This document shows, piece by piece, positions 11,669 to 56,132 of a stretch of DNA of 64,000 bases. Both the position numbers and the translations under genes were made by a program. The notes beneath the pieces were generated by a model. The model was not told where the DNA came from and made no database searches. It saw only the letters and a program-made list of their open reading frames with translations. The stretch's first letter is position 1. Every line of letters begins with the position of its first letter. The DNA lies in contig CANRGD010000001.1 in the NCBI GenBank assembly GCA_947630105.1, positions 5,749-69,748 on the forward strand, written 5' to 3'. The stretch comes from an uncultured Bacilli bacterium. GTDB taxonomy: Bacteria > Bacillota_I > Bacilli_A > RF39 > UBA660.

Positions 11669-13639
11669 TTATACATCTAACTCTTTTAAAAGTTCAGCTT
11701 TGCTTTTTTTAGAATAGTTTTCGATACCTTTTTCTTTAGCAAGTTCTCTTAATTTAGTAATAGACATAGCCTCTAAATTATTTTCATCATCTTCAGGCAT
11801 CTTTCCATTTTCAACTAAATAATCAATTTGTTCTTTTGTTAAAGTTTCATATTCTAATAATGCATCAGCAATCAATTTTAATAAATCTTTATTTTTCTTA
11901 ATAATTTCTGTTGCTTTTTTATGACAATCATCAATAATCTTTCTCATTTCCATATCAATTTCATTTGCCACTTCATTAGAAAAATGTTGAGTTTTATTAT
12001 AATCTCTTCCAAGGAATACACTTCCAGCTTGTTGTTCAAATTGTAAAGGACCTAAATCACTCATACCATATTCAGTAACCATTGCTCGAGCAATTTTTGT
12101 AGCTTTTTCAAAATCGTTATGGGCACCTGTTGTTATTTCTCCAAAAGTTATCTCTTCTGCAGTTCTACCACCTAACAATCCTGTAATTTCTTCTAATAAA
12201 TCTGTCTTTGTAGAACACATTTTTTCCTCAGTAGGTACCATCATATTATAACCACCTGCTGAACCCCTAGGAATTATTGTAACTTTTTGAACATCACTAG
12301 CATTTTTTAATTTTAAGCCAATTACTGCATGTCCTGCTTCATGGTAAGCAACTAATCGACGATCATTTTCACTATATTTATGTGAAGTTTTTGCTGGTCC
12401 CATTAACACACGATCAGTAGCTTCATCTATTTCACTCATCGTAATTTCTTCTTTATCACGTCTTACAGCTAATAAGGCAGCTTCATTTAATAAATTTTCA
12501 AGATCGGCACCACTAAATCCAGGTGTACGACGAGCTAAATTTCCTAATGTAACACCTTTAGCTAAAATCTTATTTTTAGCATGAACCTCTAATATTTCTT
12601 CACGACCTTTTCTATCTGGTAAATTAACAGTTATTTGTCTATCAAATCTTCCAGGTCTTAATAAAGCAGGATCTAAAACATCAGGCCTATTAGTTGCAGC
12701 TATAATAATTATTCCTTCATTAACCCCAAAACCATCCATTTCTGTTAGTAATTGATTTAGTGTTTGCTCACGTTCATCATGTCCTCCACCTAAACCAGTT
12801 CCTCTTTGTCTTCCAACAGCATCTATTTCATCAATGAAAATTAAACATGGTGCATTTCTTTTTGCTTGTTGAAACATATCTCTAACACGGCTGGCTCCAA
12901 CACCAACAAACAATTCTACAAAATCTGAACCACTTATAAAATAAAATGGAACATCTGCTTCTCCAGCAACAGCCTTAGCTAATAAAGTTTTACCAGTTCC
13001 TGGAGGGCCAAATAATAAGACTCCTTTAGGTATTCTAGCTCCAAGTTTTTGAAATTTTTTTGGATTTTTTAAAAAATCTATTAATTCTTTAACTTCTTCT
13101 TTTTCTTCTTTTAAACCCGCAACATCTTTAAATGTAACCTTATTATTGTCACTACTTAAACGAGCCTTACTTTTTCCAAAGTCCATTGAACTCTTATTAC
13201 CTGCAAGTTGTCTATTAAAAAACCAAAATCCTAAAACTAAAATTAACAACAAAGGTAATATATTTACTAAAATATATAAAAATGAAGATGCATCAGGATC
13301 TGGAGTAGTAGTAAATTTAAAACTCTGAGTTTCACTAGCTTTAACAATCTTTTTCATAACCTCTTCACTTAAAGGAAGACGTGCAAAAAATGATTCATTA
13401 TCTTTATAACCTTTTAATTTACCTGTTGCTTCATAAGTATATGCATTACCTCTTGTAACAATTTCTAATTCTGTTATTTTTTCTTTATTTAATTTTTCAA
13501 TAAATTCATTATATGTTAAAACATTAATATCCTTATTTAAGACATTAAATACATAAATTATTCCTAGCATAATTATTGCTAAAAATAAATATGGTAAAAG
13601 ACCTTTTTTTATAGTTTTCTTATTTATGTTATTATTCAC
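11669..13639 (-). CDS. ftsH: ATP-dependent zinc metalloprotease FtsH
   Basis: 656 aa; AAA P-loop GPPGTGKT and HEAGH zinc motif. No hprT between tilS and ftsH. Confidence 0.95.
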
Positions 13640-13651
13640 TGAATTTCCTCC

Positions 13652-14965
13652 TTAAATATATTTCAATATTATATCATAACTATCATTCTTTTTTTTGTCA
13701 AATTTTGATTTTTTTAATCCTGGAATCCATACTATAACCCCTTTCGAATCAACAACTATGGGCCATATTTCCCTTTTATCTAAAGAAATTTTTTTATCAA
13801 TAAAAATATCTTTAACTTTTTTTGAACCATTTAAATTCTTTACTGCAATTCTATCTCCTATTTTTCTAGTTCTAATTATTAAAGGTAATGTTATATCTTT
13901 ACTATTTAATCTACATATATTATTACTGTTATCTTCACAAGTATTTACTTTTTCTATTTTATGATTATTTGGTAAAGTTACATAATTATCAAACTCTATT
14001 TCATAAGAAGTAATCTCCTCAGTTACCCTTTTTAATTCTAACATATTATATTTTTTACAAGCAATAACTTCATTAGGCAAATTAACAAAACAATTAGCCT
14101 TATTACTTTTTAATAAATTAAAAATTAAGTTTAAATGTCCATCATTAACTAAAATTAAATCATCTTGATAAAATTCACTTAATAAATAATAAATAATTTC
14201 TTTTTGAATATACTCATCTTCTAATAAAAACTTATCTATTAATATTTTTTGATTTTCACACACTCTTTTTAAAGCTTTATTTCTTTCCTTTATAATAAAT
14301 TTATCTGCTTCATTTAATGATTTACTATATTTCAAAAATTTTAAATGAACATCCCTTTCTTCTTTCTTTAAAAAGGGCAAAATATATTTTCGATAACGAT
14401 TTCTAGTATACTTATCTTTTTCATTAGAACTGTCAATATAATATTTAACATTATTTTCTTTATCATATTCTTCTAATTGTTTTTTAGTAAAACTTACTAA
14501 AGGTCTTACTATTTTATAATCACCCATATCAACGATATCTCTAAAACCACTATAGCCACTTAAATTTGAACCTCTTACAATTCTCATCAAAATTGTCTCC
14601 ATTAGATCATCTCCATGATGTGCTGTCATTAAATAATTAGCTCCATATTTATGAACGACCATTTCAAAGAAATTATATCTTATATTCCTAGCTTCATTAT
14701 GAAAATTATCATCTCCATATTTTTCTATAGTCATCGATTCAAAAATAAGTTTATGTTTTGTACAGTATTCTTTCATAAATAAACTTTCTTCATAGCTTTC
14801 TTTTCGAACATTATGATTAACATGGGCAACAATTAAAGATAAATTATATTTACTTTGTATTTTAATTAGCATATCCAATAAGGCCATAGAATCTGGTCCT
14901 GTAGAGCAACCAATTACAATTATATCATTATTATTAAAAGAAAAATAATCATCAATCTTAATCAT
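13652..14965 (-). CDS. tilS: tRNA(Ile)-lysidine synthetase
   Basis: 437 aa; PP-loop GCSTGPDS. Confidence 0.85.
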   Translation of the reverse strand: MIKIDDYFSFNNNDIIVIGCSTGPDSMALLDMLIKIQSKYNLSLIVAHVNHNVRKESYEESLFMKEYCTKHKLIFESMTIEKYGDDNFHNEARNIRYNFFEMVVHKYGANYLMTAHHGDDLMETILMRIVRGSNLSGYSGFRDIVDMGDYKIVRPLVSFTKKQLEEYDKENNVKYYIDSSNEKDKYTRNRYRKYILPFLKKEERDVHLKFLKYSKSLNEADKFIIKERNKALKRVCENQKILIDKFLLEDEYIQKEIIYYLLSEFYQDDLILVNDGHLNLIFNLLKSNKANCFVNLPNEVIACKKYNMLELKRVTEEITSYEIEFDNYVTLPNNHKIEKVNTCEDNSNNICRLNSKDITLPLIIRTRKIGDRIAVKNLNGSKKVKDIFIDKKISLDKREIWPIVVDSKGVIVWIPGLKKSKFDKKKNDSYDIILKYI

Positions 14966-15053
14966 AGTGCCTCCTGTACAACTAACATTTATTATAACAA
15001 AACCCTTAATTTTAGTAAACTTTTTTAAAAAATTTAAATAAAAAAAAAGAAAG

Positions 15054-15362
15054 CTAATCTTCTTCAGGTATTTTTAAAATAAATTCTCCATCTTTTGAAT
15101 ATAAATACTTTTCACGAGCATAGCGAGCAATATAATCAGGATCCTGAAGTTTATCAGCATCAACCTTTAATTTATCCTCTTCTTCTTTTAAAGCTATCAA
15201 CTTTTTATCTAGTTGCTTTTTTTCTTGGTATTTATCATAAATCTCTATCCAATATTTTCCAATAGTAAGTGTCATAATTAATATAATGGCTATTGACCCA
15301 AGTCCTAAAATAAGCATTCTTCTTTTTTTCTTAATTTTACTTTTTTTAGCCATTTTCTTCAC
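15054..15362 (-). CDS. divIC: Septum formation initiator DivIC/FtsB
   Basis: 102 aa; single TM segment, coiled coil, DPDYIARYAREK motif. Lies in the yabP-yabQ-divIC context. Confidence 0.7.
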   Translation of the reverse strand: MKKMAKKSKIKKKRRMLILGLGSIAIILIMTLTIGKYWIEIYDKYQEKKQLDKKLIALKEEEDKLKVDADKLQDPDYIARYAREKYLYSKDGEFILKIPEED

Positions 15363-15423
15363 CTACCATTCCACCATATATTGTACATCTAAAATCTTTA
15401 AACTTCAATAAATTAAAAGCACT

Positions 15424-15696
15424 TTACTTTTTTTTGACATTAAAAATTTTATCTTCAACTATCCACCCAATAAAAATTAAAAATAAGAAATGAGGATGTA
15501 AAATTCCATTATTTATATATTTTATACTAAAAAAGTATATTAAAGCCATAATAAAAAAAAAGAAAAAATTAAAAAGTATTCTTTTACGCATACTTATAAG
15601 AAACAAAAACTTATAACATAATTTTACAAAAATGCCAAAAAAAACACCAAAAAAGAAAGAAAAAATAATACTATATATCTGTAATCTTAAACTCAT
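15424..15696 (-). CDS. yabQ: Spore cortex biosynthesis membrane protein YabQ
   Basis: 90 aa hydrophobic protein immediately downstream of yabP, as in B. subtilis. Confidence 0.5.
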   Translation of the reverse strand: MSLRLQIYSIIFSFFFGVFFGIFVKLCYKFLFLISMRKRILFNFFFFFIMALIYFFSIKYINNGILHPHFLFLIFIGWIVEDKIFNVKKK

Positions 15697-16429: not shown

Positions 16430-16642
16430 TTAATCAAGAATTTCTAAATTATCAATAAGTAAATCACTATAACTAAATGATCTAATTTTAGAATCATTCA
16501 AAGTTATTACAAAAATAGCCGGATAAACACCTGTAATTGTTCCTTCAAACTCTTCAGTTTGATTTCTGCTCCCTTTAAATCTAAAGCTATGTTCTACTCC
16601 CTTATTATCCGAAACATACTTTTTTACCATACTTATTGTCAT
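16430..16642 (-). CDS. veg: Veg protein
   Basis: 70 aa Veg/DUF1021 pattern; adjacent to yabG as in Bacillus. Confidence 0.75.
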   Translation of the reverse strand: MTISMVKKYVSDNKGVEHSFRFKGSRNQTEEFEGTITGVYPAIFVITLNDSKIRSFSYSDLLIDNLEILD

Positions 16643-17160
16643 CTTGGATACCCCACATACATAGTACCATTAGTTATAATTCCACCTATCCCATCACTAC
16701 CATATTTTGTTTTTTCAATTAAACTAATTAAATCAATACTTTGATTTCTATCCGATAAAGCTAATGAGGAAGCTATAATAGCTGGATCTAAAGCATGAAT
16801 ATTAATTCTTTTAGGACTAGAAGCAAAATTAGCTCCTGCTTTAATTAATTCTTCATAATTAGATTGACATGCCCCTGCTATAACAATTAATTTATCTTGA
16901 CTCTTTTCATATTTTCTTATCTCTCTAATAGCCGCAATAAAATTACTAGTATTTTGGTAATTATCCAAATTATTTTTGTCTTTTTTCTTTGAATAAAAAG
17001 CATCATGTCCAGTAATTACTACTATATCAGGACGATATTCTTTTATAAGACCTAACACTTTATTTGACATTTCTACCTCAGCCAAAGTAAGACCATTAGC
17101 TTTAACACCCATACTATCATAAAAACTCATACATCTTTCTAAATATTCTTCATCTCCATC
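16639..17160 (-). CDS. yabG: Sporulation-specific protease YabG, 3' segment (residues after the conserved H-I-D junction). The caller's ORF continues to 17373 by reading through into element DNA
   Basis: The segment DGDEEYLERC...RPDIVVITGHDAF...IVIAGACQSNYEELIKAGANFASSPKRINIHALDP aligns with the C-terminal two-thirds of B. subtilis YabG. The upstream 71 residues of the called ORF have no YabG similarity. Confidence 0.8.
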   Translation of the reverse strand, partial: DGDEEYLERCMSFYDSMGVKANGLTLAEVEMSNKVLGLIKEYRPDIVVITGHDAFYSKKKDKNNLDNYQNTSNFIAAIREIRKYEKSQDKLIVIAGACQSNYEELIKAGANFASSPKRINIHALDPAIIASSLALSDRNQSIDLISLIEKTKYGSDGIGGIITNGTMYVGYPR

Positions 17161-17459
17161 TGCTGACCTTTGATAAGTAAATACGTGTGTTTTAAATAAA
17201 GGCAACTCTTTGCCATCATGTAGATTTAAGTAATTTTTCGGTCTCTCATATAACTTCTTTACTTTTTCATTTATCAACCTTTTTATTGCTTTTCTTTTAT
17301 CCTGTTCTTTTATTTCAGGTTCCTGCGATAACCTTAAATACAGAATAACCTTAGAGTCATTTGTTAGTTCCATAATTTACCTCCCTTTCTAACCTTTTAT
17401 ATATGCGACTTCTTGTGCCACTCTAATATATGATGCATTTTCTCTAATCATACATTCTC

Positions 17460-19022
17460 TTAATACAATTTTATTTTTTTAGGATCTCCTAATCCAAATT
17501 TATATGATATTTTTAATGTATTATCACTATAAACTACAATTTCTTTTATCAAATCTCTAACAACATTATTGATAAATTCATCATGATTTATAAATTTATT
17601 ATATTTATCAATCAATTCTTCTTTTCGTACTTTTTCATTTTTTGACTCCATTATTTCTTTTAGCATTTGCTCGGATTGTTCTTTTTGTTTTACTTCTTCC
17701 TCTTTTCGTTCAATGAACTCATTTAAAGTTATTTCTCCTGTAGTCTTTTTTAAATACAGATTTCTAATATTAGCATTATGAAATTCAATATCTTCCTTTA
17801 AATTAGATATTTTCAAATTGGGTCTTTCACTTTTTAATATATCCTTGGTTGCTTTAGAAACAATCTTTTCTTCATCAACATAATTATCGATGATATCCTT
17901 CAAATTTTCTTTAATTATTGTTCTTAATCGAGAATCTGCTATTTTTCTGTTTTTACACCGTTTTCTATCAACAACTTTCGTACATTCAAAGTAGTATTGT
18001 ACTTTTCTGTCTTTTTTTTGAACTCTACACGCTGTCATTATCCTTCCGCAAGTACCACAAATAACTAAACCACTGAATAAACCACAATAGTCATTTTTTT
18101 CCCTTCTTTTCGTTTGCCTTAATCTACTATTAGCAGCTTCAAATAGCTCATCAGATATAATAATCGGATGACAATTCTCTATTGCTTCTCTATCTCTTAT
18201 AGGTATTACTTGTCTTTGCTTTTGATGATAATCTTGCTTACTTGATTTTCTTTTAACAATTCTTCCCGTATAAGTTTTATTTTTGAGTATTCTATAAACA
18301 ACCTTGTTAGACCAATCATAGTAATATTTTTTATTTTTGCTTGGTGTCATTTTCATATGAATAACAGGTGGTATAACTTTATCCTTATTAAGCTCATCTG
18401 CTACTTCCTGCCTAGTCTTACCACTTGCTACTTCAGTAAAAATCCTTTTTACTACTTTAGCAGCATCTTCATCAATTTCAAGAAACCTTTTATCTTTAAT
18501 TTTCTTAATTTTATATCCATAAGGTGCCATAAATCCAATAAACTGTCCTTCTTCTGTTTTTGCCATTGCTACCTGTTTTCTTTTTACGGATGCCTCTTTA
18601 ACATATCGGTCGTTAATTAAAGAACGTATACCTAACATTACCTCTTGTTCATTATCTTGAGGATTATTACTATCAAAGCAATCATTGATAGCAATATATC
18701 TAACATTATTTTTAGGAAAGTATTCGCTTATATAATATGCAGTTTCTAAAAAGTTTCTTCCTAATCTGGACATATCTTTTGTTATAACTATGCCAATTAA
18801 ACCATTTTCAATATCTTCTTTTAATCTTTCAAATCCAGGTCGATCAAAAGTTATTCCCGAATACCCATCATCAATATATTCTCTATCTACTGTCAAACCC
18901 ATACTTTTAGCATAAGATTTTATAAAACCTAATTGATTATATATGCTAGATGAATATTCACTTTCTTTAACAAAATCTTCTTGAGATAATCGCCCATAGG
19001 AAACAGTTAATCGATTATCCAT
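17460..19022 (-). CDS. Large serine recombinase (resolvase catalytic domain, recombinase domain, zinc ribbon), second of a tandem pair
   Basis: YGRLSQED catalytic-serine motif, DDGYSG, VITKDMSRLGRN, and a C-terminal Cys cluster. The likely start is the ATG at 19022, preceded by a GAGGT RBS, which overlaps the upstream recombinase stop by 8 nt. Confidence 0.85.
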   Translation of the reverse strand: MDNRLTVSYGRLSQEDFVKESEYSSSIYNQLGFIKSYAKSMGLTVDREYIDDGYSGITFDRPGFERLKEDIENGLIGIVITKDMSRLGRNFLETAYYISEYFPKNNVRYIAINDCFDSNNPQDNEQEVMLGIRSLINDRYVKEASVKRKQVAMAKTEEGQFIGFMAPYGYKIKKIKDKRFLEIDEDAAKVVKRIFTEVASGKTRQEVADELNKDKVIPPVIHMKMTPSKNKKYYYDWSNKVVYRILKNKTYTGRIVKRKSSKQDYHQKQRQVIPIRDREAIENCHPIIISDELFEAANSRLRQTKRREKNDYCGLFSGLVICGTCGRIMTACRVQKKDRKVQYYFECTKVVDRKRCKNRKIADSRLRTIIKENLKDIIDNYVDEEKIVSKATKDILKSERPNLKISNLKEDIEFHNANIRNLYLKKTTGEITLNEFIERKEEEVKQKEQSEQMLKEIMESKNEKVRKEELIDKYNKFINHDEFINNVVRDLIKEIVVYSDNTLKISYKFGLGDPKKIKLY

Positions 19023-20604
19023 ATTTAACCTCATTCAAATTAAAATTAAAGAAAATTTTAACTGACTTATCTTCATGTATTTCTATTCTATTAACAAATG
19101 TCCTTAAGACTTCCTTATCGGGATTCTTTGCATTTAAAAATTCATTGATGTATTTCCTTTTCGTTTTTTCATCTGTTAGAATATTTTTGGCTTCACTTAC
19201 TGATATTTCTAAATCTACTATTTTTTCTGCACAATTTTTTCTATCTTTCTCTAGGTCACTTTTTATTCCAAAAAATTCCTCATTAGAAATAATATTATTT
19301 GCTCTATCCTTATATAAATCACTAATAACCTTATCAATAGTTATCATTTTTGATTTATATTCTTTTAAATTAGCTTCATATTCGCTTAAAACATTCAAAT
19401 CACATAATGATGTTTCATATTTTTTTTCTAAAGATTCATTATTAGAATATTTGATTAAGATAGTTCTAATTTCCTTTAAAACAAGTTCATTCAGATCTTC
19501 CTCTCTATAATAATGCATTGTACATACGTGATTACGATATGTTGCATAAGTTCTGCACAGATATATAGGAGTAATTTTTGTAGAGTCGTTCTTTCCTTTT
19601 ACTCGTCGTACTAACATAGTCTTACCACATTCGCCACAAACAACTAATCCTTTTAACAAGTAATCATATTGTCTATGACGTGTATCAGTCTTTCTTTTAG
19701 GAGTATTAACCTTTTCAAAAAGTTCAGTAGAAACAATTTGAGGTAATGCTCCTTTTTTTATTATCCACTTACTTTTTGGTAGTAGTCTTTTCTTTTTTGA
19801 CTTCAAGCTCACCCTTTCATATTTTCCTTGAATCAAAGTTCCTATATATACTTCATTTTCTAATATATGTTTAACAGAAGATGCCTTCCATATATTCGTA
19901 GTCACCGTGACTTTTTTCATTTTTTTACCTCTATAAACGTCAGGAGGACTAATCCCATCGTTTGTTAAAATTCTTGCTATCATCCCTTCCGATTTTCCAC
20001 TATCTTTTAATTCAAAGATTTTTTTAACTATTGGTGCAGCATACTCATCAATAACAAGTAGCTTATTATTTTCCTCTGATCTTTTATAACCAAAAGGAAC
20101 AGAACTACCTACAAATTCTCCTTTTTTCATCATATCGTGTCTAACACTTTTAATTTTTTTTGATATATCTTTTATATACATATCATTGATAACTGCCTTA
20201 AAAGGAATTATATCTTCTACCCCATTAGGAGTTAAAGAATCATAATTATCCAATATAGCAATATATCTAACATTATGTTCTGGAAAATATTTAAACACAT
20301 AATTACCAGTCTCTATAAACTCTCTACCTAATCTAGACATATCCTTTGTAATGACGCAATCAATTACTCCGTTTTCAATGTCATTTATTAGTCGACGAAA
20401 TGCAGGTCTATCAAAATTTCCACCAGAGTATCCATCATCAACATAGTAATCATATATTTCAATATTGTTTTTCAAAGCAAAATCTTTTATAAAGGCTCTT
20501 TGATTTTTGATACTTATACTTTCGTTATTTTTATTGTCATCTTCTATCGAAAGCCTTAAATAACCTCCTGCTTTGTATGTTTTATCAGTTAAGTAATTTA
20601 TCAT
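19015..20604 (-). CDS. Large serine recombinase, first of a tandem pair
   Basis: YLRLSIED, DDGYSGG, VITKDMSRLGRE, CGECG...C zinc ribbon. The start at 20604 is preferred because of its GGGAGGG RBS; the caller's ORF extends to 20637. Confidence 0.85.
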   Translation of the reverse strand: MINYLTDKTYKAGGYLRLSIEDDNKNNESISIKNQRAFIKDFALKNNIEIYDYYVDDGYSGGNFDRPAFRRLINDIENGVIDCVITKDMSRLGREFIETGNYVFKYFPEHNVRYIAILDNYDSLTPNGVEDIIPFKAVINDMYIKDISKKIKSVRHDMMKKGEFVGSSVPFGYKRSEENNKLLVIDEYAAPIVKKIFELKDSGKSEGMIARILTNDGISPPDVYRGKKMKKVTVTTNIWKASSVKHILENEVYIGTLIQGKYERVSLKSKKKRLLPKSKWIIKKGALPQIVSTELFEKVNTPKRKTDTRHRQYDYLLKGLVVCGECGKTMLVRRVKGKNDSTKITPIYLCRTYATYRNHVCTMHYYREEDLNELVLKEIRTILIKYSNNESLEKKYETSLCDLNVLSEYEANLKEYKSKMITIDKVISDLYKDRANNIISNEEFFGIKSDLEKDRKNCAEKIVDLEISVSEAKNILTDEKTKRKYINEFLNAKNPDKEVLRTFVNRIEIHEDKSVKIFFNFNLNEVKYG

Positions 20605-20687
20605 TTTCACCCTCCCTTTATTCCTAACTAACTCCACATAACACAGTCATTATAAATTACTTATCAATTTATTCCCAATGTGCAAAT

Positions 20688-20813
20688 TTATTGATATTTT
20701 GTATTTTGCAGTGTTGACTTCAAATATCTTTCAAATGCCTCTAAAATTTTTTCACTAATTGTTGGAGCATTTTCATCAAAAACACATATAACTAATTCCT
20801 TGCCTTTATCCAT
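20688..20813 (-). CDS. Small 41-aa ORF (MDKGKELVICVFDENAPTISEKILEAFERYLKSTLQNTKYQ) with a strong RBS, just upstream of the recombinase pair
   Basis: AGAGGAGG Shine-Dalgarno 7 nt upstream of the ATG. Not in the supplied ORF track because it is too short. Confidence 0.3.
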   Translation of the reverse strand: MDKGKELVICVFDENAPTISEKILEAFERYLKSTLQNTKYQ

Positions 20814-21031
20814 GGTATTCCTCCTCTTTAAATTTATGAATATTTTCTTAATTAATGAACAAAAAATTCCTTAATATTTTACATAAGTTAAATTTTTTAC
20901 CATTGATTTAAAATGTTATAGTAAAATAAATATTGAAAACAAAAAAGCAAACTCACCTTTATAGAATTTGCTCATTTACTCATTTCCTATTTCTTTTCAA
21001 TAATATCGTATGTAAATTAAATACTATATAA

Positions 21032-21490
21032 TTATTTTAAATTATAACCTAACTTTTCTAATTCCATATTTGCAATATATGATAATTCTTCTTTTGAAAG
21101 TTCATCAATTTCATAAAAATCAGCACCAAGTGAATCATCATTTTGATCATCAATCTTAACATTTCTTTTTATTTGTCCATCATATTCTAACACTTTGTAA
21201 AAAACACCAACATGGTGACCTTTTATTATAACATCTTTATAAGGCCATTCAAAAGTAACCGAATCAGCATCAAATAATTCATGCTTTTTTACTTCTATAC
21301 CAACTTCTTCTACTAACTCTCTTTTTAGTGTATCTTCTGGTCTTTCACAAAATTCAATCGTACCACCAGGCAAATCTAACTTTCCATCATATGGACCACC
21401 AGATTTTTTTATCAATAAAATCTTACCTTCATTTACTATTAAAGCATAAGCTCCCAATTGTTTGTATTCTTTATATTTCTCCACCTTCAT
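21032..21490 (-). CDS. NUDIX hydrolase (element cargo)
   Basis: 152 aa; Nudix box GGTIEFCERPEDTLKRELVEEVGIEV. Confidence 0.8.
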   Translation of the reverse strand: MKVEKYKEYKQLGAYALIVNEGKILLIKKSGGPYDGKLDLPGGTIEFCERPEDTLKRELVEEVGIEVKKHELFDADSVTFEWPYKDVIIKGHHVGVFYKVLEYDGQIKRNVKIDDQNDDSLGADFYEIDELSKEELSYIANMELEKLGYNLK

Positions 21491-21518
21491 CGCTCCTATT
21501 TAGCATCATTATATCATA

Positions 21519-22673
21519 TTATTTCTTTAACACATAACTAAATTTATTTTTATCATTTTTATGATTATCTTCCCAATCAAAACTTACCTCTTGCTCTCTA
21601 CAATAATCACAAAAAGGTATAGGTTTATTTAATTTTTCAATTGCTTCCCAACCATCAGTAATATCATTAATTTTTACATAATCGTCGTCAGAAATTTCAA
21701 AGTTTGTTCCATACTTTTTATTAAGAATATCAATTAATAAAGGATAATAACATTTTGAAATTTTTCCATCTCTTAAAAACCTACAAAATCTGCCATAACA
21801 AATTTCACTAGCAAAATTATTCTCACTTTTCTTTTCTAGGGATAATCTTGTCTGAAATTGTTTTATAACTTCTGGTTCTTTAAAATAATCATCATTAATT
21901 AAGTATTTAATATTATATTTTTTTAATGTTTCTTCAATACTTTGTATTTTTTCATATGTAGGTTTATATAAGGAAATAGAAATCATTATATTATTATCTG
22001 ATATTGTTTGCAATGTTTCATTATCCAATCTATCAATTAACAGACCATTTGTTACAATAACAATTCTAGATTTTTTTAAAATATTTCTAGCTATTTTAAC
22101 TAATTCTGAAATTTTTGGATGGAGAAAAGGTTCTCCCCCTAGGATTCTAAAATTATATAGAAAAAATTTATCAGATACCTTTTTCAAATCTTCTTTAAAT
22201 TTATTTACATCAACATAATTATTATCATAAATATTTGAAAAATGAGCACAACCTTTACAATTTAAATTACATTGATCAACAATATTCATCTCTAAATAAT
22301 TTAAAAAAGGAATATTAAAATCAATCTTTTCAAGGTGTTGATATAAATCTTCTATAGTATTTGGATTAGAAAATAAAATTTCCTCACTTACTACATACAC
22401 ATTCAAATATTCATGCTGTTTTAAATAAGTAATTGTTTCTCCTAATATCATAGGCTTTTTTGTAATAAATATATTACTATCTTTATCTATGTTAAAATAT
22501 TCATCAACACCAATGGTAGGAATATCTCTATAGATATTTTGTGGCAACCTTTTATTATCATTAGAAATTTTTAAAAAACCATCAATTGGAATATGAAATT
22601 TTTCTAATATTTCGGCTGTTTCAGCTGCAAAAGGTCCTGTACCAAAAATGAAATTATTTGCCATACTTATCAC
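21519..22673 (-). CDS. Radical SAM enzyme with N-terminal extension and C-terminal Cys-rich (SPASM/twitch-like) region (element cargo)
   Basis: 384 aa; CNLNCKGCAH CxxxCxxC cluster; additional C-terminal cysteines CYGRFCRF, CYYP, CDYC. Confidence 0.8.
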   Translation of the reverse strand: MISMANNFIFGTGPFAAETAEILEKFHIPIDGFLKISNDNKRLPQNIYRDIPTIGVDEYFNIDKDSNIFITKKPMILGETITYLKQHEYLNVYVVSEEILFSNPNTIEDLYQHLEKIDFNIPFLNYLEMNIVDQCNLNCKGCAHFSNIYDNNYVDVNKFKEDLKKVSDKFFLYNFRILGGEPFLHPKISELVKIARNILKKSRIVIVTNGLLIDRLDNETLQTISDNNIMISISLYKPTYEKIQSIEETLKKYNIKYLINDDYFKEPEVIKQFQTRLSLEKKSENNFASEICYGRFCRFLRDGKISKCYYPLLIDILNKKYGTNFEISDDDYVKINDITDGWEAIEKLNKPIPFCDYCREQEVSFDWEDNHKNDKNKFSYVLKK

Positions 22674-23658
22674 CTGCTTTCTGATAAACCTTAGGATGCT
22701 CTAAAGAAGCAATTCTAAAATTTAAATTTTCATACATCCAATCAAATTTTCCATATTGTTTCAATTCACAATCAACAATCATCTTTAATATTACGTACAT
22801 TCTATAAATTTCTATTCTATTTAATTCTGATGAATTAAGTGATGATTTATTAAAACCCTTCAAAAAATGAGAACTCATTTTACCATCAATAGTATGAAAA
22901 TAAAATGTCATTAACTCATCACAATAATACAAATCTGTAAAATCAACTATACCAGAAATATTACCTTCATTAACAAGAACATTGCCATCCCATATATCTG
23001 TATGACTTAAACATAAATTTGTTATATTATTAAGATTTTCCTTATTTGATGATATTACATTTATAATTCTTTCATACATATTTTTTCCTAAATCCATATT
23101 TTTAGTAGATGCATCATTTAATAATAATTGAAATAAATTTAATACAAACTCAAAATTATCATTAAATCTTTTCTCAGGCTGACTAGGTAGAAAAAATTCA
23201 TTACCTTTTAACATACATATTTTAGAGCTAAAAAAGCCAATCTGATATTCTATCTTTTCAATTTCTTTTGAAGTTAACTTTTCCTTGCATTGTAAAAAAT
23301 TATTTCCTGGTATATAACTCATAAAAAAGTAAGGCTCTTTACAAATATTACTAGTATCACTATATCTTAATAATCTAGGAGATGGAAAATCTATTGTTTC
23401 CATTTTCTTTAACATTTCGGATTCCCACCATAAAATATTTCTATCTACGGTTATCATTTTACTTTCATCTTTAGGTGCTATTTTAAGAACGACTTTATTA
23501 CCATCATCATCTATTAAATATACTGCATTTTTCATTCCACCACTTAATTTCATAATATTTAATTTATTGGATTTTTTTTGAAATGATTCTTCATACATTA
23601 ATTTAATTATTTCTTCTGATTGATAATTTTTTACGGAAGAATTATTATTTGTTTCCAT
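22654..23658 (-). CDS. APH/choline-kinase-family phosphotransferase (element cargo)
   Basis: 334 aa; catalytic loop LSHTDIWDGNVLV and IVDFTD (DFG-like). Overlaps its neighbours on both sides, consistent with an operon. Confidence 0.65.
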   Translation of the reverse strand: METNNNSSVKNYQSEEIIKLMYEESFQKKSNKLNIMKLSGGMKNAVYLIDDDGNKVVLKIAPKDESKMITVDRNILWWESEMLKKMETIDFPSPRLLRYSDTSNICKEPYFFMSYIPGNNFLQCKEKLTSKEIEKIEYQIGFFSSKICMLKGNEFFLPSQPEKRFNDNFEFVLNLFQLLLNDASTKNMDLGKNMYERIINVISSNKENLNNITNLCLSHTDIWDGNVLVNEGNISGIVDFTDLYYCDELMTFYFHTIDGKMSSHFLKGFNKSSLNSSELNRIEIYRMYVILKMIVDCELKQYGKFDWMYENLNFRIASLEHPKVYQKAGDKYGK

Positions 23659-25591
23659 TTTTGGCTCCTTGATATCCTTTTATGTATTTTTTACAAACTT
23701 CGTTAGTATATTGGAATTCATCATTATCTACTGTTAAATGAAAAATATTATCATAAGCATAATTAGATATTTTATGTTTATAATACTTTCTAATAAACGA
23801 TTTTAAATTAGCAACTTCCTCAAACATAAAACCTTTCATTTTATTAAAATACATATAATTTGATACTTTTACCAGCATATTTAATATTACTATTGTATTA
23901 CTATCATATTTATCAATCAAAGTACTTGCTTTTATATATGGAATTCCTTCAAATTCATGATTATCTTCATAAATTGCATTTATAAACTCACTATACTTAT
24001 CCTTTAAATCAATTGGTATACATTCTTGTATTGATACTTTTTCACCAATAAGGCCTACTGCTTCTTTCATCATATTCTCATCTAAAGAATTCCATAAAAT
24101 ACCTATACAAGGTAATTCTATTGATGGCATTTTATTCTTATCTATTTTTCCATCTTCGATTAAAGTATTTATAATTGATAATACTTCATCTAATTTTCTA
24201 AACTTCTTAACATTATTTGCTGTTAATAGTAAATTCATTAAATTATTTATCACATCCTGTAATTCTTTTTTAAATTCATCTTTTTCTAAAATACCTTCTT
24301 TGTGGTCTCTCATATAATTCCTAATAATATGAACCAAACTATTATATAATATTTTTTCAGCAGCATCTCTATACTCTTCCCCTTGAGATAGAACTTCTTC
24401 ATATTTTTCTTTTCCCCAATCTTGAAGTGTAAATAATTCAGATGATATTTTATTACCTGTTAATGATACAGATTTTCTTTTAACATAGTGATAAAATGGT
24501 ATATTAACAAGTGCAAATGATTTATCCTCCTTACACAATCTGTAAATATAATCAGAATCTTCTTTAAAACAAGTTTTATCAAATCTAATATTTCTAATAG
24601 AAGAAAGTTTATATAACTTATCCCAAGCAGGAATCAATATTGTTGCATCCGAATATGCATTGATTAAATCTAAATGACCCTCTACTAATTTAACTCCTTT
24701 TTGTTCACAACTTACATCTTTAATATCACCATTTTTCATATGAATATAAAAACTACTTTCACATACATCTGCATTTGTTTTTTCCGCGGTTTTCATTAGG
24801 GTTTCAATCATAGAATTTTCAACATAATCATCAGAATCAAAAAAACATATATATTCTCCTGTTGCTAACTCTATTCCTTTATTTCTAGTCTCAGCAAGTC
24901 CACAATTTTGCTGATGAACAACTTTTATTCTACTATCCGCCTCGGCAAGTAAATTACATATTTTTAATGAATCATCTGTTGAGCCATCATCAATTAAAAT
25001 TATTTCTAAATTTCTATAAGTTTGATTTGTTATACTTTTAATACAACGTACCAAATAATTAGATGTGTTATATATAGGTACTACAACAGTAACTTTTTTA
25101 TCATTATAAATATTATAGTCAATATATTCTTGTAATTTATCTTTCCAATCACTATCAGTATCATTTATTTTTAAATGATAAAAAGAATCATTATAAGTTG
25201 ACTCAATACTTTTAACTCTATATTTTTGTAATAATTCCATTCCATTATCTAAACAGCTATGATACTGATTAGAATTTGCTTTTATTACTAAATTACAATT
25301 ACTAAAAATATATGAATCTTCTAAATTAGAATAATTAATAACAACTATATCATTCTTCCTAAAATGAGCTAAATTTGCCATTATTTCATCATCCACTTTA
25401 TTTCTAATTTTCATAAAATATAAAATCTTTGAATTATAATTCATATTTTTTTCTTTATCGTAATAATTATCCTGTTCTAAAATTTTTTTTAGTATTTGAT
25501 CTACATCTAAATACTTAAATGAATAATTTTCAATTAAATACTCTGCAATTTCCTTTCCTACTCTATTATTACCGGTAATTCCTACAATCAC
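23645..25591 (-). CDS. Three-part protein: N-terminal P-loop nucleotide-kinase-like domain, central family-2 glycosyltransferase domain, C-terminal domain of unknown function (element cargo); GTG start
   Basis: 648 aa. GITGNNRVGKE P-loop. VTVVVPIYNTSNYL...LIDDGSTDDS with FFDSDDYV DxD motif, typical of GT2. GTG start with a GGGGGTG RBS. Confidence 0.7.
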   Translation of the reverse strand: MIVGITGNNRVGKEIAEYLIENYSFKYLDVDQILKKILEQDNYYDKEKNMNYNSKILYFMKIRNKVDDEIMANLAHFRKNDIVVINYSNLEDSYIFSNCNLVIKANSNQYHSCLDNGMELLQKYRVKSIESTYNDSFYHLKINDTDSDWKDKLQEYIDYNIYNDKKVTVVVPIYNTSNYLVRCIKSITNQTYRNLEIILIDDGSTDDSLKICNLLAEADSRIKVVHQQNCGLAETRNKGIELATGEYICFFDSDDYVENSMIETLMKTAEKTNADVCESSFYIHMKNGDIKDVSCEQKGVKLVEGHLDLINAYSDATILIPAWDKLYKLSSIRNIRFDKTCFKEDSDYIYRLCKEDKSFALVNIPFYHYVKRKSVSLTGNKISSELFTLQDWGKEKYEEVLSQGEEYRDAAEKILYNSLVHIIRNYMRDHKEGILEKDEFKKELQDVINNLMNLLLTANNVKKFRKLDEVLSIINTLIEDGKIDKNKMPSIELPCIGILWNSLDENMMKEAVGLIGEKVSIQECIPIDLKDKYSEFINAIYEDNHEFEGIPYIKASTLIDKYDSNTIVILNMLVKVSNYMYFNKMKGFMFEEVANLKSFIRKYYKHKISNYAYDNIFHLTVDNDEFQYTNEVCKKYIKGYQGAKNGNK

Positions 25592-25618
25592 TGATAAACA
25601 CCCCCAAAATTATCAAAT

Positions 25619-25648
25619 ATACTAGCATATTCCCCCATATTTTGTCAA
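25619..25648 (-). promoter_or_regulatory. Candidate sigma-A-type promoter for the cargo operon (TTGACA-18 nt-TAGTAT)
   Basis: Read on the minus strand: ttgacaaaatatgggggaatatgctagtatat, about 25 nt upstream of the GTG start. Confidence 0.3.
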
Positions 25649-26085
25649 TTAAATGTCCAAGGAATCACAGAGTTCATTCTTATATTAAATGTTTTAATTA
25701 AAGTGTTTTATTTTTACTAGATTCTTATTCACAATCTTTTATAAATTTTTTTATATAGTCTATACATCTTAGAGAAATATATCTTTCTTTAACATCTGCT
25801 ATCCAAATTACTTTACAATTAGATATATTTTCAACCTTTCATTCTAAAAAAAGATATGTATAGCAAAAAAAAGAACTTAAATTTATTAAATTCTTGTTAT
25901 GTTTTATTAGTTAAGAATATATCAATTTTATTTACTTAAGAAATGTCACCCCTCCTTTTGAGTGAAGAATCTTTTAAATTTTTTACCTATTTTTTGGCAT
26001 TTTTGAGATTTTTTATGAATTTTAAAGTTTAGTATTTCCCTATTTTATAAGGGTTTGCGAGTGGTTATTTAATTTAATGTCAGCG

Positions 26086-26357
26086 TCAATATGTAATATT
26101 TTTCCTGGTATATAAAAATATTTATTTCTATCCATTTCTAAACTTCTTAAATTACTTTCTATAATTTGTTTATCCTCAGCCTTTCCTTCTGTATTAGCAA
26201 TCACTAAATCGTTAATATCACTATCCGCATAAAGTCTTAAATCAACACCTTTTAACAAAACACTATTTTGATTAATTTCAATGATTTTAAATAAAATATC
26301 ATGTTGATGAGAAATTCTAGTAACATAATCACCTATATTAAATTGCAATAACATCAT
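26086..26357 (-). CDS. yabG: Sporulation-specific protease YabG, 5' segment (N-terminal ~91 residues). The caller's ORF runs on to a stop at 26040 inside the element
   Basis: MMLLQFNIGDYVTRISHQHDILFKIIEINQ...LRLYADSDINDLV...YFYIPGKILHID aligns with the B. subtilis YabG N-terminus (MQFQIGDMVARKSYQMDVLFRIIGIEQ...RLIADSDFSDLV...HMPGKVLHLDGD). Confidence 0.8.
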
Positions 26358-51078: not shown

Positions 51079-52206
51079 TTAGTAAGTTCTTATTGGTAAA
51101 ACTAATTGAGTTAATGATTCATCCTCTTTTGATTTTATTAAAATAGGTTTAATTTCTCCTACAAAATGAATATCCACAGATTCTGTTGAAAAACTTTTTA
51201 AAGCTTCCATCATATATTTTGCACTAAAAGAAATCTTTATATCTTCATTATTATTTTTATTAATAAGCATTTTTTCTTCTACTCTACCTATTTCAGCAGA
51301 ACTACTTTTTAAAATAAGAGTATCACCTTTAGTTTCTAAAGTAACAATATTTTTTTCTTTATCGCTTGTTAATATACTAACTCTATCAATAACATCATAA
51401 AATGCATTTAAATTAGTATTAACAATCAAAAATGAATCATCAGGCATTAAATTAGCAGTATTTGGATATGTTCCATTAATAAGTCTTGATTCAAATTTTA
51501 AATTATTTACTTTAAACAAAATCTTATTGTTAAAAATATGTAATTCAATTATTTCATCATCATCATTTAATATTTTAGAAAATTCAATTATATTTCTACT
51601 AGGTATAACAATATTATAACTATCTTCACTAACTTGATCTAATTTAATAACTTTTCTTGCCAATCTATAAGAATCAGTCGAATTACACTCTAAAATATCA
51701 CCTGTAATATTAAAATTAATTCCAGTTAAAATTGGTTTACTTTCTTCATTTGAAGAAGCAAATGCTGTTTGATTAACAATATTTTTAAATACTCCTGCTT
51801 TTATATCTACTTTTTTCTTACTTTCTTCAAGTCCTATATTAGGATATTCACTTTCAGCTATTCCATTAAGATTAAATTCACTATTTTCTGTGTAAATAAG
51901 AATTTTCAATTCATCAACTACTTCAATATTTATAAACTTATCTGGTAATTTTCTAACAATATCTAAAATATATTTTCCTTGAATAATTATACTACCTTCA
52001 TTATATATAGTAAAATCTTCTTCCTTAGTTGATTCTATACTTGTTTGAATAGTTATATCATTATCACTAGCAGTTAAAACTAATTTTTTCTTTTTTAATT
52101 CAAATTTAATTCCCGCAAGAACAGGTATCAAGTTCTTAGTAGATATAGCTTTTGATACTTTATTTAAAGCTTCCAATAATAATTCTTTTTTAATAGTAAA
52201 TTTCAT
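51079..52206 (-). CDS. dnaN: DNA polymerase III beta sliding clamp
   Basis: 375 aa three-domain clamp, conserved position after dnaA. Confidence 0.9.
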   Translation of the reverse strand: MKFTIKKELLLEALNKVSKAISTKNLIPVLAGIKFELKKKKLVLTASDNDITIQTSIESTKEEDFTIYNEGSIIIQGKYILDIVRKLPDKFINIEVVDELKILIYTENSEFNLNGIAESEYPNIGLEESKKKVDIKAGVFKNIVNQTAFASSNEESKPILTGINFNITGDILECNSTDSYRLARKVIKLDQVSEDSYNIVIPSRNIIEFSKILNDDDEIIELHIFNNKILFKVNNLKFESRLINGTYPNTANLMPDDSFLIVNTNLNAFYDVIDRVSILTSDKEKNIVTLETKGDTLILKSSSAEIGRVEEKMLINKNNNEDIKISFSAKYMMEALKSFSTESVDIHFVGEIKPILIKSKEDESLTQLVLPIRTY

Positions 52207-52337
52207 TATAATTCCTTCTTTCTTTTTTTATATTTTTATTATTACTGTGGAAAAAGTTAATAACTTAATATTTTTATATATTTCAAAGATTTAACTAAAA
52301 ATTAATTTGTGGAAAATTATTATTAAATTAATTATTT
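52207..52337. other. dnaA-dnaN intergenic DnaA-box cluster (second oriC module)
   Basis: Two TGTGGAAAA (=TTTTCCACA) boxes at 52247..52255 and 52309..52317 in a highly AT-rich spacer. Confidence 0.5.
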
Positions 52338-53720: not shown

Positions 53721-54027
53721 TCCACCATCTCCCCACAAGATAAATAATTTAAATTTAGTGTACCTTAATTTGTGCAAAAAATAAATGTTTTTTTTACAAA
53801 AAAAATTATCCACATTTTATCAACAACTTTTTCCACTAATAAGAGTATTGAATTTAAATGCTAAAGCAAAGTTATCCACATTTTCCACAATTTATTAATA
53901 ACAATGTTCCAAAAAAAAATACACAAGCTTGTGTATAAAGTGAAAAACTCTAAAATTAAAGTTTTAATTGACAAAATATCAATAATATTATTATAATAAT
54001 GTAGATTTATGTCTGGAGGTGGAACAA
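53721..54027. other. oriC region upstream of dnaA with DnaA boxes
   Basis: Perfect TTATCCACA at 53806..53814 and 53872..53880, plus near-boxes TTTTCCACA (53881..53889) and TTTTCCACT (53829..53837); AT-rich flanks. Confidence 0.75.
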
Positions 54028-54150
54028 ATGAAGAGAACATATCAACCAAATAATCGTAAAAAAGCAAAAAAATTAGGCTTTTTTGCTCGCAAGAAAACAA
54101 ATATTTTAAATCGTCGCCGTCGCAAAGGTCGTAAAAGTCTTTGCGCCTAA
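54028..54150 (+). CDS. rpmH: 50S ribosomal protein L34
   Basis: Manual translation gives [40 protein letters not shown], preceded by a GGAGGTGG RBS. Too short for the supplied ORF track. Confidence 0.85.
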
Positions 54151-54198
54151 AACCGCTGATAAAACAGTGGTTTTTTACTCTTAAAAAGAAGGGATATT

Positions 54199-54534: not shown

Positions 54535-54535
54535 T

Positions 54536-56072: not shown

Positions 56073-56132
56073 ATCAAACTTCTTTTTTTCTTTCTAATAT
56101 GCTATAATACAAAAGAAAAAAGGAGGAATTAT

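Follow-up and report, generated by a model that had tools for sequence, protein, structure and literature searches.

The window, a 64,000-nucleotide stretch of a contig from an uncultured Bacilli bacterium, carries four intact genes, closely packed on its minus strand (positions 21032-25591), which on the sequence evidence form a real, conserved and uncharacterised pathway, and one of which encodes a glycosyltransferase fused to a previously undescribed NDK-like domain. The function preferred for this cassette, tentatively, is a cytoplasmic pathway in which glycosyl and phosphoryl transfer are coupled on a nucleotide-, nucleoside- or sugar-type small molecule, rather than modification of a spore-coat glycan. 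In the genome of the window the cassette is accessory cargo of an 8.9-kb element intervening in yabG.

The operon and its recurrence in other genomes

The genes encode proteins of 648, 334, 384 and 152 aa, with ORF overlaps of 14 nt (648-aa/334-aa) and 20 nt (334-aa/384-aa) and a gap of 28 nt (384-aa/152-aa). All four ORFs of the original prediction were present as described, on the minus strand, every one of its motifs (CNLNCKGC, HTDIWDGN, DFTD, GITGNNRVGKE, DDGSTDDS and DSDD) was located in the translations, and its family assignments were right as assessed by Pfam (NUDIX, E=1e-15; Radical_SAM, 6e-13; APH, 1.5e-13, with Fructosamin_kin at 4e-10; Glycos_transf_2, 1e-35). Full-length homologues of the 648-aa protein (approximately 100 clusters, 41-81% identity), approximately 50 syntenic loci and the invariance of catalytic residues across the homologues together argue that the genes are real and not chance ORFs. 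A sigma-A-type promoter with an extended -10 element (TTGACA-18-TGcTAGTAT; 25619..25648, minus strand), the top sigma-70-type match in the region, is located 27 nt upstream of the GTG start codon of the 648-aa gene, supporting the proposed co-directional operon behind such a promoter. The motif is kept upstream of 8 of the 18 non-redundant homologous cassettes, where shuffles predict 0.2. The promoter travels with the cassette, and being of vegetative type it would drive expression of the cargo.

The same gene set was found in dozens of uncultured gut Firmicutes, a recurrence that argues for a real conserved pathway, and the order GT/NDK – APH/FN3K-like kinase – (radical SAM) – MutT-like Nudix was observed at approximately 50 loci in at least 14 genomic contexts. 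Fusion variants include GT/NDK+APH (963 aa; P0009, in which a kinase of the 334-aa type is joined to a protein of the 648-aa type) and CoaE-GT2-NDK-HipA_C-like kinase (902 aa), and in two split variants separate genes encode either GT2, CoaE, [NDK+kinase] and Nudix, or rSAM, NDK, P-loop kinase, GT2 and Nudix. The parts are considered to work together because of the fixed order, these fusions and the split versions. Deep-clade loci contain an additional YgjV membrane protein and two of them (L008 and L009) also a nucleoside phosphorylase. In profile searches no curated pathway or defence system was matched, in agreement with the earlier remark that the combination was not recognised as a known pathway. 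The hosts are spore-formers; the cassettes are often near mobile elements, with most copies outside any sporulation gene. A mad3-like gene of the MADS type directly borders the cassette at one locus, and at least seven loci adjoin helD; the neighbouring 'UvrD-like helicase' corresponds to the housekeeping HelD.

Domains of the four enzymes

The 648-aa protein (23645..25591, minus strand) comprises a degenerate CoaE-like P-loop domain (aa 1-~150; 25142-25591), a GT-A family-2 glycosyltransferase domain (aa ~165-383; 24443-25099), a helical linker (aa 384-483) and an NDK-fold domain (aa ~484-640; 23672-24142), all encoded on the minus strand. The N-terminal region had been proposed to be a P-loop kinase; the P-loop was retained as CoaE-like but the working kinase was not, since Walker A is decayed in the clade of the window cassette, where the domain is catalytically decayed. 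In the deep clade it is intact and of CoaE type. The C-terminal ~250 aa, previously described as having no recognisable motifs, end in the NDK-fold domain, which occupies the last ~160 aa. Conserved Tyr, Lys/Arg, Asp, His and Glu residues are ordered as the NDK active-site residues and lie on matching secondary-structure elements, an equivalence drawn from motif order and secondary structure and not from a residue-level superposition. However, in contrast to this resemblance, sequence similarity to Ndk (PF00334) was undetectable in sequence and profile comparisons, a Trp replaces NDK Lys12, and the domain, unlike Ndk, is always within, or encoded beside, a glycosyltransferase and a protein-kinase-like kinase. 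Just 89 clusters among 1.8 billion representatives make up this very small family, and a search of sequenced plasmids and phages yielded no copy of the domain.

The GT2 domain is an intact GT-A family-2 domain with a DxD motif. Polymers or glycans are the targets of all its closest relatives by sequence and structure (GalT1/5hea, RmlT, TarP, TarS, chondroitin synthase, TuaG and WaaH-like enzymes), with no small-molecule GT2 standing out among them. For the GT2 domain and helical region combined, the best solved relatives were GalT1 (5hea; profile E=4e-54, Foldseek 5e-21), RmlT (~490 aligned columns), TarP and TarS, and the best PHROG matches were GtrB-like conversion genes. TarP and TarS of S. 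aureus, RmlT of L. monocytogenes and GalT1 of S. parasanguinis are cytoplasmic, soluble enzymes which share the DxD GT-A domain and helical region. These matches raise the alternative, somewhat unlikely but the strongest of those weighed, that the GT2, like these enzymes, adds a sugar to a cytoplasmic precursor of teichoic-acid (polyol-phosphate) or glycoprotein type, altering surface antigenicity or phage adsorption, while the kinase, NDK-like domain and Nudix protein supply or recycle the sugar donor; carriage on mobile elements would also fit, tarP being a prophage gene carried by a mobile element. However, polysaccharide or teichoic-acid genes were found in none of the at least 14 cassette contexts, and the known decorating glycosyltransferases work without a kinase, Nudix or radical-SAM partner. 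TarP/TarS, RmlT and GalT1 also lack the CoaE-like and NDK-like domains of the 648-aa protein and its obligatory kinase and Nudix partners, and the cassette family is defined by the NDK-like domain and kinase, not by the glycosyltransferase.

The 334-aa APH/fructosamine-kinase-like kinase (22654..23658, minus strand) has intact HxDxxxxN and DFxD catalytic motifs; APH was matched by 20/20 members of its family and Fructosamin_kin by 19/20, and no relative with a solved structure was found in the structure-database search. The 152-aa MutT-like Nudix hydrolase (21032..21490, minus strand), for which MutT is the closest relative, has a complete Nudix box (GGTIEFCERPEDTLKRELVEEVGI).

The 384-aa radical-SAM enzyme (21519..22673, minus strand), whose homologues begin at Met4 of the ORF, contains a Rossmann N-terminus with a GxGxxA motif, a CX3CX2C core and C-terminal cysteines. 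Profile searching of the N-terminal extension identified a PglD_N-like Rossmann domain, and five invariant C-terminal cysteines (C292, C297, C308, C355 and C358) fit the auxiliary Fe-S cluster that had been suggested. The best solved relative was 7wzv (tabulated without a functional name), and the nearest relatives of the core include MoaA, viperin and BlsE. The gene has been lost repeatedly, with at least four independent pseudogenisation patterns and many clean losses, and is a dispensable, optional fourth member of the cassette.

Prokaryotic viperins with nucleotide kinases likewise combine radical-SAM and nucleotide-kinase-type proteins on accessory DNA, and an improbable reading of the cassette is nucleotide-based anti-phage defence or signalling in which the radical-SAM enzyme would work like viperin, modifying an NTP made by the kinases, and the Nudix protein would protect the host. 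Individual PADLOC matches were obtained, all of them weak, for the radical-SAM enzyme with pVip (1e-13, core only), the Nudix protein with PDC-S07 (5e-13), a deep-clade P-loop kinase with VakA (2e-6) and the HipA_C-like kinase half with PDC-M03A (1e-22), and the mad3-like neighbour and frequent proximity to mobile elements point the same way. However, there was no system-level PADLOC match, coverage of the pVip and VakA models is partial (pVip over the first ~100 positions only), and viperins have neither the extra N-terminal domain nor the auxiliary-cluster cysteines. Furthermore, most cassettes have lost the radical-SAM gene or carry it as a pseudogene but keep the others, the constant parts being the glycosyltransferase and Nudix in contrast to viperin systems, and the helicase neighbour is a housekeeping protein.

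The preferred small-molecule pathway

In the preferred pathway, of which every chemical step, the substrate and the product are putative, the glycosyltransferase would use an NDP-sugar as donor; the NDK-like domain, through a phospho-histidine, would re-phosphorylate the released NDP or phosphorylate an intermediate; the APH-like kinase would phosphorylate a hydroxyl of a sugar or ribose; the Nudix protein would cleave a nucleoside-diphosphate linkage, either in the product or in a by-product; and the radical-SAM enzyme would tailor the substrate in lineages retaining its gene. The self-promoted, horizontally mobile cassette would in this way perform glycosyl transfer and several phosphoryl-transfer steps on one substrate. 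A nucleotide flavour is suggested by the deep-clade CoaE-type P-loop, the MutT-like Nudix, the relatives of the radical-SAM core and the nucleoside phosphorylase of L008/L009. Counting against the pathway are the polymer- or glycan-acting GT2 relatives, the NDK-like domain's lack of sequence similarity, the decayed P-loop, the dispensability of the radical-SAM enzyme and the absence from every cassette variant of a nucleotidyltransferase to produce a dedicated donor. Modification of a small molecule or nucleotide-sugar conjugate, one of the roles first suggested, stands as the most plausible class but not as an established role.

The yabG-intervening element

The cassette lies in a gene-intervening element of 8,925 bp (17161..26085, minus strand) inserted in yabG, with the crossover dinucleotide GA at 26086-26087 (attL) and 17159-17160 (attR) and a deduced attP that forms the pseudo-palindrome GTCAGCA-GA-CGCTGAC. 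The 5' part of yabG, encoding sporulation peptidase U57 (26086..26357, minus strand), matches PF05582 and TIGR02855 at profile positions 1-78, and the 3' part (16639..17160, minus strand) matches PF05582 (5e-71) at positions 56-280; joining them in silico yielded a 263-aa YabG (...PGKILHIDGDEEYLERC...) collinear with its intact counterpart in L002. In the mother cell, yabG is presumably made whole again by excision. Of the two large serine recombinases, A (540 aa; 19015..20637, minus strand; Pfam Resolvase, Recombinase and Zn_ribbon_recom; PHROG integrase, 6e-98) is overlapped by 20 nt by B (524 aa; 17460..19034, minus strand; 34% identical to A). Directly upstream of both genes, a 41-aa ORF with a strong ribosome-binding site (20688..20813, minus strand), with counterparts beside the recombinases of L143 (49% identity) and of the L002 fossil element, is a candidate recombination directionality factor. 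As first noted, the element contains no phage structural genes, the enzyme set being its sole payload.

A role in modifying a spore-surface glycan, the leading idea of the original prediction, would tie the cargo to this insertion; the hosts are spore-formers, the element splits a spore-coat protease gene, and coat glycosyltransferases are paired with APH-fold coat kinases in B. subtilis, e.g. CotSA/CotS. However, the role found no direct support and is very unlikely: the 334-aa kinase gave zero matches to the CotS, YsxE and YutH NCBIfam models, the conserved promoter is of sigma-A and not sigma-E or sigma-K type, most cassettes are in unrelated loci, beside conjugation genes or near prophage, and the mother-cell genome would have the element excised.

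The nearest relative of the cassette (84.7% DNA identity over 4,653 bp) adjoins conjugation genes in a larger element whose recombination module is the same. All conjugation genes are missing from the window, and the yabG element is a reduced relative of a larger conjugation-gene-carrying element. In L143-145 the cassette is situated between conjugation genes (PrgI, VirB4/TraG-like ATPase, CHAP hydrolase) and HTH regulators/serine recombinases, as is the accessory-gene slot of Tn916/Tn5397-type elements, which lies between conjugation genes and regulator/recombinase genes. This position, the cassette's own sigma-A-type promoter, the classical use of APH-family kinases and glycosyltransferases as drug-modifying enzymes, and the adjoining helD (the HelD-like HelR shields RNA polymerase from rifamycins) are compatible with a cassette that inactivates an antibiotic or a toxic nucleoside analogue, or confers immunity to it; kinase and glycosyltransferase would modify the compound, and the Nudix protein would clear its activated nucleotide form. 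This is nevertheless unlikely, since resistance seldom calls for as many as four to six conserved enzymes or for multidomain fusion proteins, curated resistance models were unmatched except for weak generic APH matches, the NDK-like domain is missing from the plasmids and phages searched and the helD link may reflect shared ancestral gene order. The cargo also differs from that of Tn916/Tn5397 in being a multi-enzyme set and not a single resistance gene.

Like gin (gerE, B. cereus), yin (yabG, C. botulinum), skin and SPbeta, the element interrupts a sporulation gene of the mother cell, and it shares with them large serine recombinase(s), a ~40-aa candidate directionality factor and precise gene restoration, here in silico. 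Gin is likewise phage-free with several recombinases, and its factor GirX has 42 aa (PMC5595907); yin has the same target gene, yabG (PMC10747680). However, the yabG element is far smaller than gin (8.9 kb against 28.6 kb), is not a prophage as yin is, and is distinguished from all four by a payload consisting of a single enzyme operon, a relative that carries conjugation genes, and an excision that is predicted.

Gene order and enzyme families of the cassette

The four genes of the cassette were recovered as open reading frames on the minus strand at exactly the boundaries originally proposed, and every motif quoted in the original prediction was found in the translations. In the direction of transcription they encode a 648-aa protein (23645-25591) carrying a CoaE-like P-loop domain, a GT2 glycosyltransferase domain and an NDK-like domain, a 334-aa kinase of the APH/Fructosamin_kin type (22654-23658), a 384-aa radical-SAM protein (rSAM; 21519-22673) and a 152-aa NUDIX protein (21032-21490), with overlaps of 14 nt and 20 nt and a 28-nt gap ahead of the last gene. 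The assignments to NUDIX, Radical_SAM, APH/Fructosamin_kin and Glycos_transf_2 were borne out by Pfam and NCBIfam; for the prediction as a whole, the observations were confirmed and the interpretation was upheld in part only. A promoter motif, TTGAC[AT]-N16-18-(TGn)TAnnnT, was located no more than 140 nt upstream in eight of 18 non-redundant loci against an expectation of 0.2, and this conservation argues for cassette expression of the vegetative sigma-A type. No common promoter had been visible by eye upstream of the eight cassettes compared first, the motif emerging with the set of 18 loci.

Full-length homologues of the 648-aa protein formed about 100 clusters at 41-81% identity, all from uncultured Firmicutes, Bacilli or Clostridia. 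Its GT2 domain matched PF00535 with an E-value of 1.2e-35 (123 bits, cut-off 23.3) and aligned to 5hea in Foldseek with a TM-score, normalised to the target, of 0.84; residues D202, D252, D254 and D255, representing the DxD motif and the acceptor-side Asp, were invariant in the alignment (n=36 sequences). The P-loop motif, previously read as that of a nucleotide- or nucleoside-kinase-like domain, did not hold up: the window protein reads GITGNNRVGKE and departs from the Walker A pattern GxxxxGK[ST], which is variable or lost across the crown clade of window-type relatives and intact (GKS/T) only in the deep clade, whose members match Pfam CoaE (PF01121).

The kinase matched APH (PF01636, E 1.5e-13) and contains both the HxDxxxxN loop and the DFxD metal-binding motif, with D221, N226 and D239 invariant among homologues; APH was matched by all 20 family members and Fructosamin_kin by 19 of them. 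No solved-structure relative of the kinase was found, profile search included. Modification of the spore surface, a further possible role, is very improbable, as none of the NCBIfam/TIGRFAM spore-kinase models (CotS, YsxE, YutH) was matched by the kinase at E-values up to 0.01.

In the rSAM protein, the CX3CX2C cluster (C135, C139, C142) and the GGE motif (G179-G180-E181) were invariant (n=17; PF04055, E 6.5e-13). Five C-terminal cysteines were likewise invariant among the 17 homologues, which supports the earlier suggestion of a putative auxiliary Fe-S domain; the sole SPASM/twitch model matched was twitch NF033640, weakly, at an E-value of 9e-5 and far below its cut-off. A viperin-like defence role was weighed against the match of this protein to prokaryotic viperin (pVip), which covers profile positions 4-101 of 257 only and is not full-length. 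Whereas pVip is a protein of about 300 aa with a single cluster, the window rSAM carries a further domain at its N-terminus together with the auxiliary set of cysteines. PADLOC returned no system-level match for the component set, only isolated weak single-protein matches, and defence of this kind is accordingly a poor candidate. The Nudix box GX5EX7REUXEEXGU is complete in the 152-aa translation (PF00293, E 1.2e-15). Text searches of the literature for the PDB codes 7WZV, 7WZX, 7X0B, 9DFU and 9DGW, and for PDC-M03, PDC-S07 and VakA, returned nothing relevant.

The NDK-like C-terminal domain

The C-terminal region of about 160 aa is the best-conserved part of the 648-aa alignment and was found to have the NDK alpha/beta fold. 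Across 75 representatives covering every architecture, Tyr, Lys, Arg, Asp, His and Glu were near-universal, with His conserved in 74/75, Arg in 75/75, Tyr in 75/75, Glu in 74/75 and Asp in 70/75, in the order expected for NDK. The His lies on strand beta-4 within the sequence N-x-x-H-x-T-D and is preceded by an 'IRxxY' motif; when residue equivalence is read from motif order and secondary structure, the position of Lys12 of NDK is occupied by Trp. NDK itself carries the motifs NxxHGSD and TIRGDF, and its residues have recognised roles. Since N-x-x-H-x-T-D and 'IRxxY' mirror these two motifs, the domain is probably an active phospho-histidine domain. It had no Pfam match (PF00334), hhalign against NDK gave a probability below 1%, and a PDB profile search with the C-terminal domain at E-values up to 10 retrieved no NDK, so that the link to NDK is drawn from fold and motif order. 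The C-terminus of about 250 aa had been described as free of recognisable motifs; its last 160 aa or so are the NDK-fold region with the near-universal residues.

The family is very small, comprising 89 clusters in 1.8 billion representatives, and is a new NDK-fold family lacking a Pfam model. The domain was not found in the sequenced phages and plasmids searched, and the phage collection gave matches to the GT2 domain only. In BFVD, the top viral structural matches of the NDK-like domain (window 23648-24142, minus strand) were giant-virus proteins, two annotated as glycosyltransferase (Yasminevirus, 726 aa; Catovirus, 863 aa) and one a 477-aa protein from Mimivirus LCMiAC01. On these structural matches, the arrangement of a glycosyltransferase with an NDK-like domain may have counterparts outside bacteria, in giant viruses.

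Recurrence of the cassette and its predicted function

Around 50 homologous loci on other contigs (designated L followed by a number) were collected by a pattern scan with the NDK-like domain and by look-ups of contigs encoding homologues. A contig scan with the full-length alignment drew generic GT2 peptide patterns, hence mostly unrelated glycosyltransferases, and was useful for L010 and L011 only. Wherever a locus extends far enough to reveal the order, the kinase gene comes immediately 3' of the GT/NDK gene, and the Nudix gene is the last of the set except in two locus groups (L005-7 and L133). The rSAM gene is intact in about 20 of the loci. Elsewhere it is either broken up, with four or more independent patterns of fragmentation (L002-4; L104/108/127; L110/113; L114/115), or absent, and is therefore an optional member of the cassette.

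Five arrangements of the NDK-like domain were observed: it ends CoaE-GT2 proteins, forms a protein by itself, precedes a HipA_C-like kinase in fusions of about 450-470 aa, is part of CoaE-GT2-NDK-kinase proteins of 902 aa and, in one case, belongs to a 963-aa fusion of GT/NDK with APH. The cassette also occurs split, either into separate genes for GT2, CoaE, a fused NDK and kinase, and Nudix, or into genes for rSAM, NDK, P-loop kinase, GT2 and Nudix. The recurrence of these parts as fusions and as neighbours provides the strongest evidence that the glycosyltransferase, P-loop kinase, NDK-like domain, protein-kinase-like kinase and Nudix protein would serve one pathway. Loci of the deep clade further contain another GT2 and the membrane protein YgjV, for which no described function was found in the literature, and some cassette loci adjoin genes for an AMP-binding enzyme and a hybrid histidine kinase.

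In line with the original prediction, which recognised no known pathway in this combination, none of the curated pathways, resistance models, spore-kinase families or defence systems was found to fit it. Inactivation of a drug or toxin is an unlikely role. We tentatively favour, at somewhat below an even chance, a cytoplasmic pathway in which transfer of glycosyl groups is coupled to that of phosphoryl groups on a small molecule of the nucleotide or sugar type, because the glycosyltransferase has several phosphotransfer domains either fused to it or as constant neighbours, the ancestral P-loop domain is of the CoaE type, CoaE acting on the ribose 3'-OH, the Nudix is MutT-like, the kinase resembles fructosamine-3-kinase in 19/20 members, the nearest relatives of the rSAM core include MoaA, viperin and BlsE, and polysaccharide genes accompany the cassette in no case. 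The main rival, that an envelope polymer is decorated in the manner of TarP, is doubtful; what speaks for it is the kinship of the GT2 domain, which together with the helical region is closest to GalT1, RmlT, TarP and TarS.

A bolder reading, slightly less likely than the small-molecule one, is a new kind of pathway that would make or destroy a glycosylated, phosphorylated nucleotide-like molecule. A previously unrecognised NDK-fold phospho-histidine family would be its core, with a protein-kinase-like kinase, a GT-A glycosyltransferase, a CoaE-type kinase and a MutT-like Nudix as obligatory partners, and the pathway would have become the cargo of conjugative and gene-intervening elements among gut Firmicutes. 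Protection from a toxin that is a nucleoside or acts on RNA polymerase would be an example and, if true, would explain the recurrent neighbourhood of helD, whose product is an RNA-polymerase recycling motor. This gene (NCBIfam NF041464, E 1e-112 to 1e-126) adjoins many cassettes of several architectures, with no fixed side or strand, at L008 (15258-17198), L010 (13323-15446), L102 (4937-7021) and also L124, L125, L129, L140 and L141; none was found in the window. The proximity could reflect a functional link or a shared ancestral gene order. An identification of the neighbour as a 'UvrD-like defence helicase' was rejected, as NCBIfam identifies the gene as HelD. Beyond the cassette and helD, L141 carries a MADS mad3-like ATPase (12721-15540; PADLOC E 2e-100), and this cassette locus therefore abuts a defence system. 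The cassette opens to experiment an uncharacterised enzyme module that many uncultured spore-formers of the gut have conserved.

The yabG element and the mobility of its cargo

The gene yabG, encoding a sporulation peptidase (U57), is split in the window into a 5' part (26086-26357) and a 3' part (16639-17160), as identified with Pfam and NCBIfam. The intervening element spans 17161-26085 (8,925 bp), its crossover GA dinucleotide having been placed by comparison with the intact orthologue in L002, and its deduced attP is the pseudo-palindrome GTCAGCA-GA-CGCTGAC. Joining the halves yields a 263-aa YabG reading ...HIDGDEEYLERC..., collinear with the orthologue in L002. The operon is followed downstream by a 41-aa ORF and by the genes for two large serine recombinases, A and B; these genes overlap, and their products are 34% identical. 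Neither Pfam nor a phage-profile search found phage genes in the element, in agreement with the prediction. Given the split yabG, the serine recombinases and the reading frame restored on joining, it is a predicted sporulation gene-intervening element.

The element gin is likewise phage-free and encodes three serine recombinases and a directionality factor of 42 aa (PMC5595907), the window candidate being the ORF of 41 aa. The element yin occupies the same target gene in C. botulinum but is a prophage, which the window element is not; the 2023 paper on yin reports that public genomes showed no further insertion in yabG (PMC10747680). The window element would be the second known to interrupt yabG and the first non-prophage one.

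The closest relative of the cassette is that of L143-145. Over 4,653 bp, a stretch that begins with the promoter and ends where the Nudix gene stops, the DNA is 84.7% identical, and the recombination module there (small ORF and two recombinases) is 69% identical to that of the window. In this region (L143 1-18672; also L144 and L145) the cassette lies between conjugation genes (PrgI, a VirB4/TraG-like ATPase and a CHAP hydrolase) on one side and, on the other, HTH regulators with the small ORF and tandem recombinases. Because cassette and recombination module sit beside conjugation genes, the window element appears to have arisen from a conjugative element by reduction. A fossil element occupies the same yabG site in L002-4, where the rSAM and recombinase-A genes remain as fragments only. 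Its cargo is flanked by a 1,068-bp direct repeat of 99.7% identity (L002 7794-8861 and 15140-16207; also in L003 and L004), composed of 3' ksgA and 5' yabG, the second copy of which supplies an intact yabG downstream. In L002-4 the cargo was retained after mobility was lost. A likely evolutionary series for the cargo runs from a helD-side chromosomal locus through an element with conjugation genes and the 8.9-kb yabG mini-element to the fossil, with the recombinases gone and yabG restored by a 1-kb duplication. There is evidence, too, that selection keeps the cargo and not the element. The window insertion is, on its gene content, a putative new addition to the gene-intervening elements, and its cargo is an uncharacterised conserved enzyme module of predicted function.

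Further copies of the cassette have tyrosine integrases, a different serine recombinase or a prophage terminase in their vicinity. In L139 (11771-13733, an IMG/VR contig), about 4.5 kb separates the full four-gene cassette from genes encoding both terminase subunits, small and large, and the cassette is inside or beside a prophage. The variant cassette of L010 (rSAM, NDK-like, P-loop kinase, GT2, Nudix) adjoins an IS66 fragment and a serine recombinase related to recombinase A (L010 5115-6698 and 8321-8680); this contig is binned as Sphaerochaetaceae, a doubtful assignment since L011, with a near-identical arrangement, is placed in Bacilli. L143-145 also carries an AMP-binding enzyme and a hybrid histidine kinase, both missing from the window.

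The 3' part of yabG in the window belongs to an in-frame ORF (16639-17373, minus strand) that begins at an ATG at 17373, inside the element, behind a strong Shine-Dalgarno sequence (aaagggagg) and 86 nt downstream of recombinase B in the same direction. As this ORF has its own start and Shine-Dalgarno sequence within the element, a YabG of 244 aa that lacks its N-terminal part and covers U57 profile positions 56-280 could be made without excision. The window spans the replication origin (51079-57485), where the minus strand carries dnaN and dnaA and the plus strand rnpA, yidC, jag, mnmE and mnmG; the GC skew changes sign near 54 kb of the window, and the element is about 28-37 kb from oriC.
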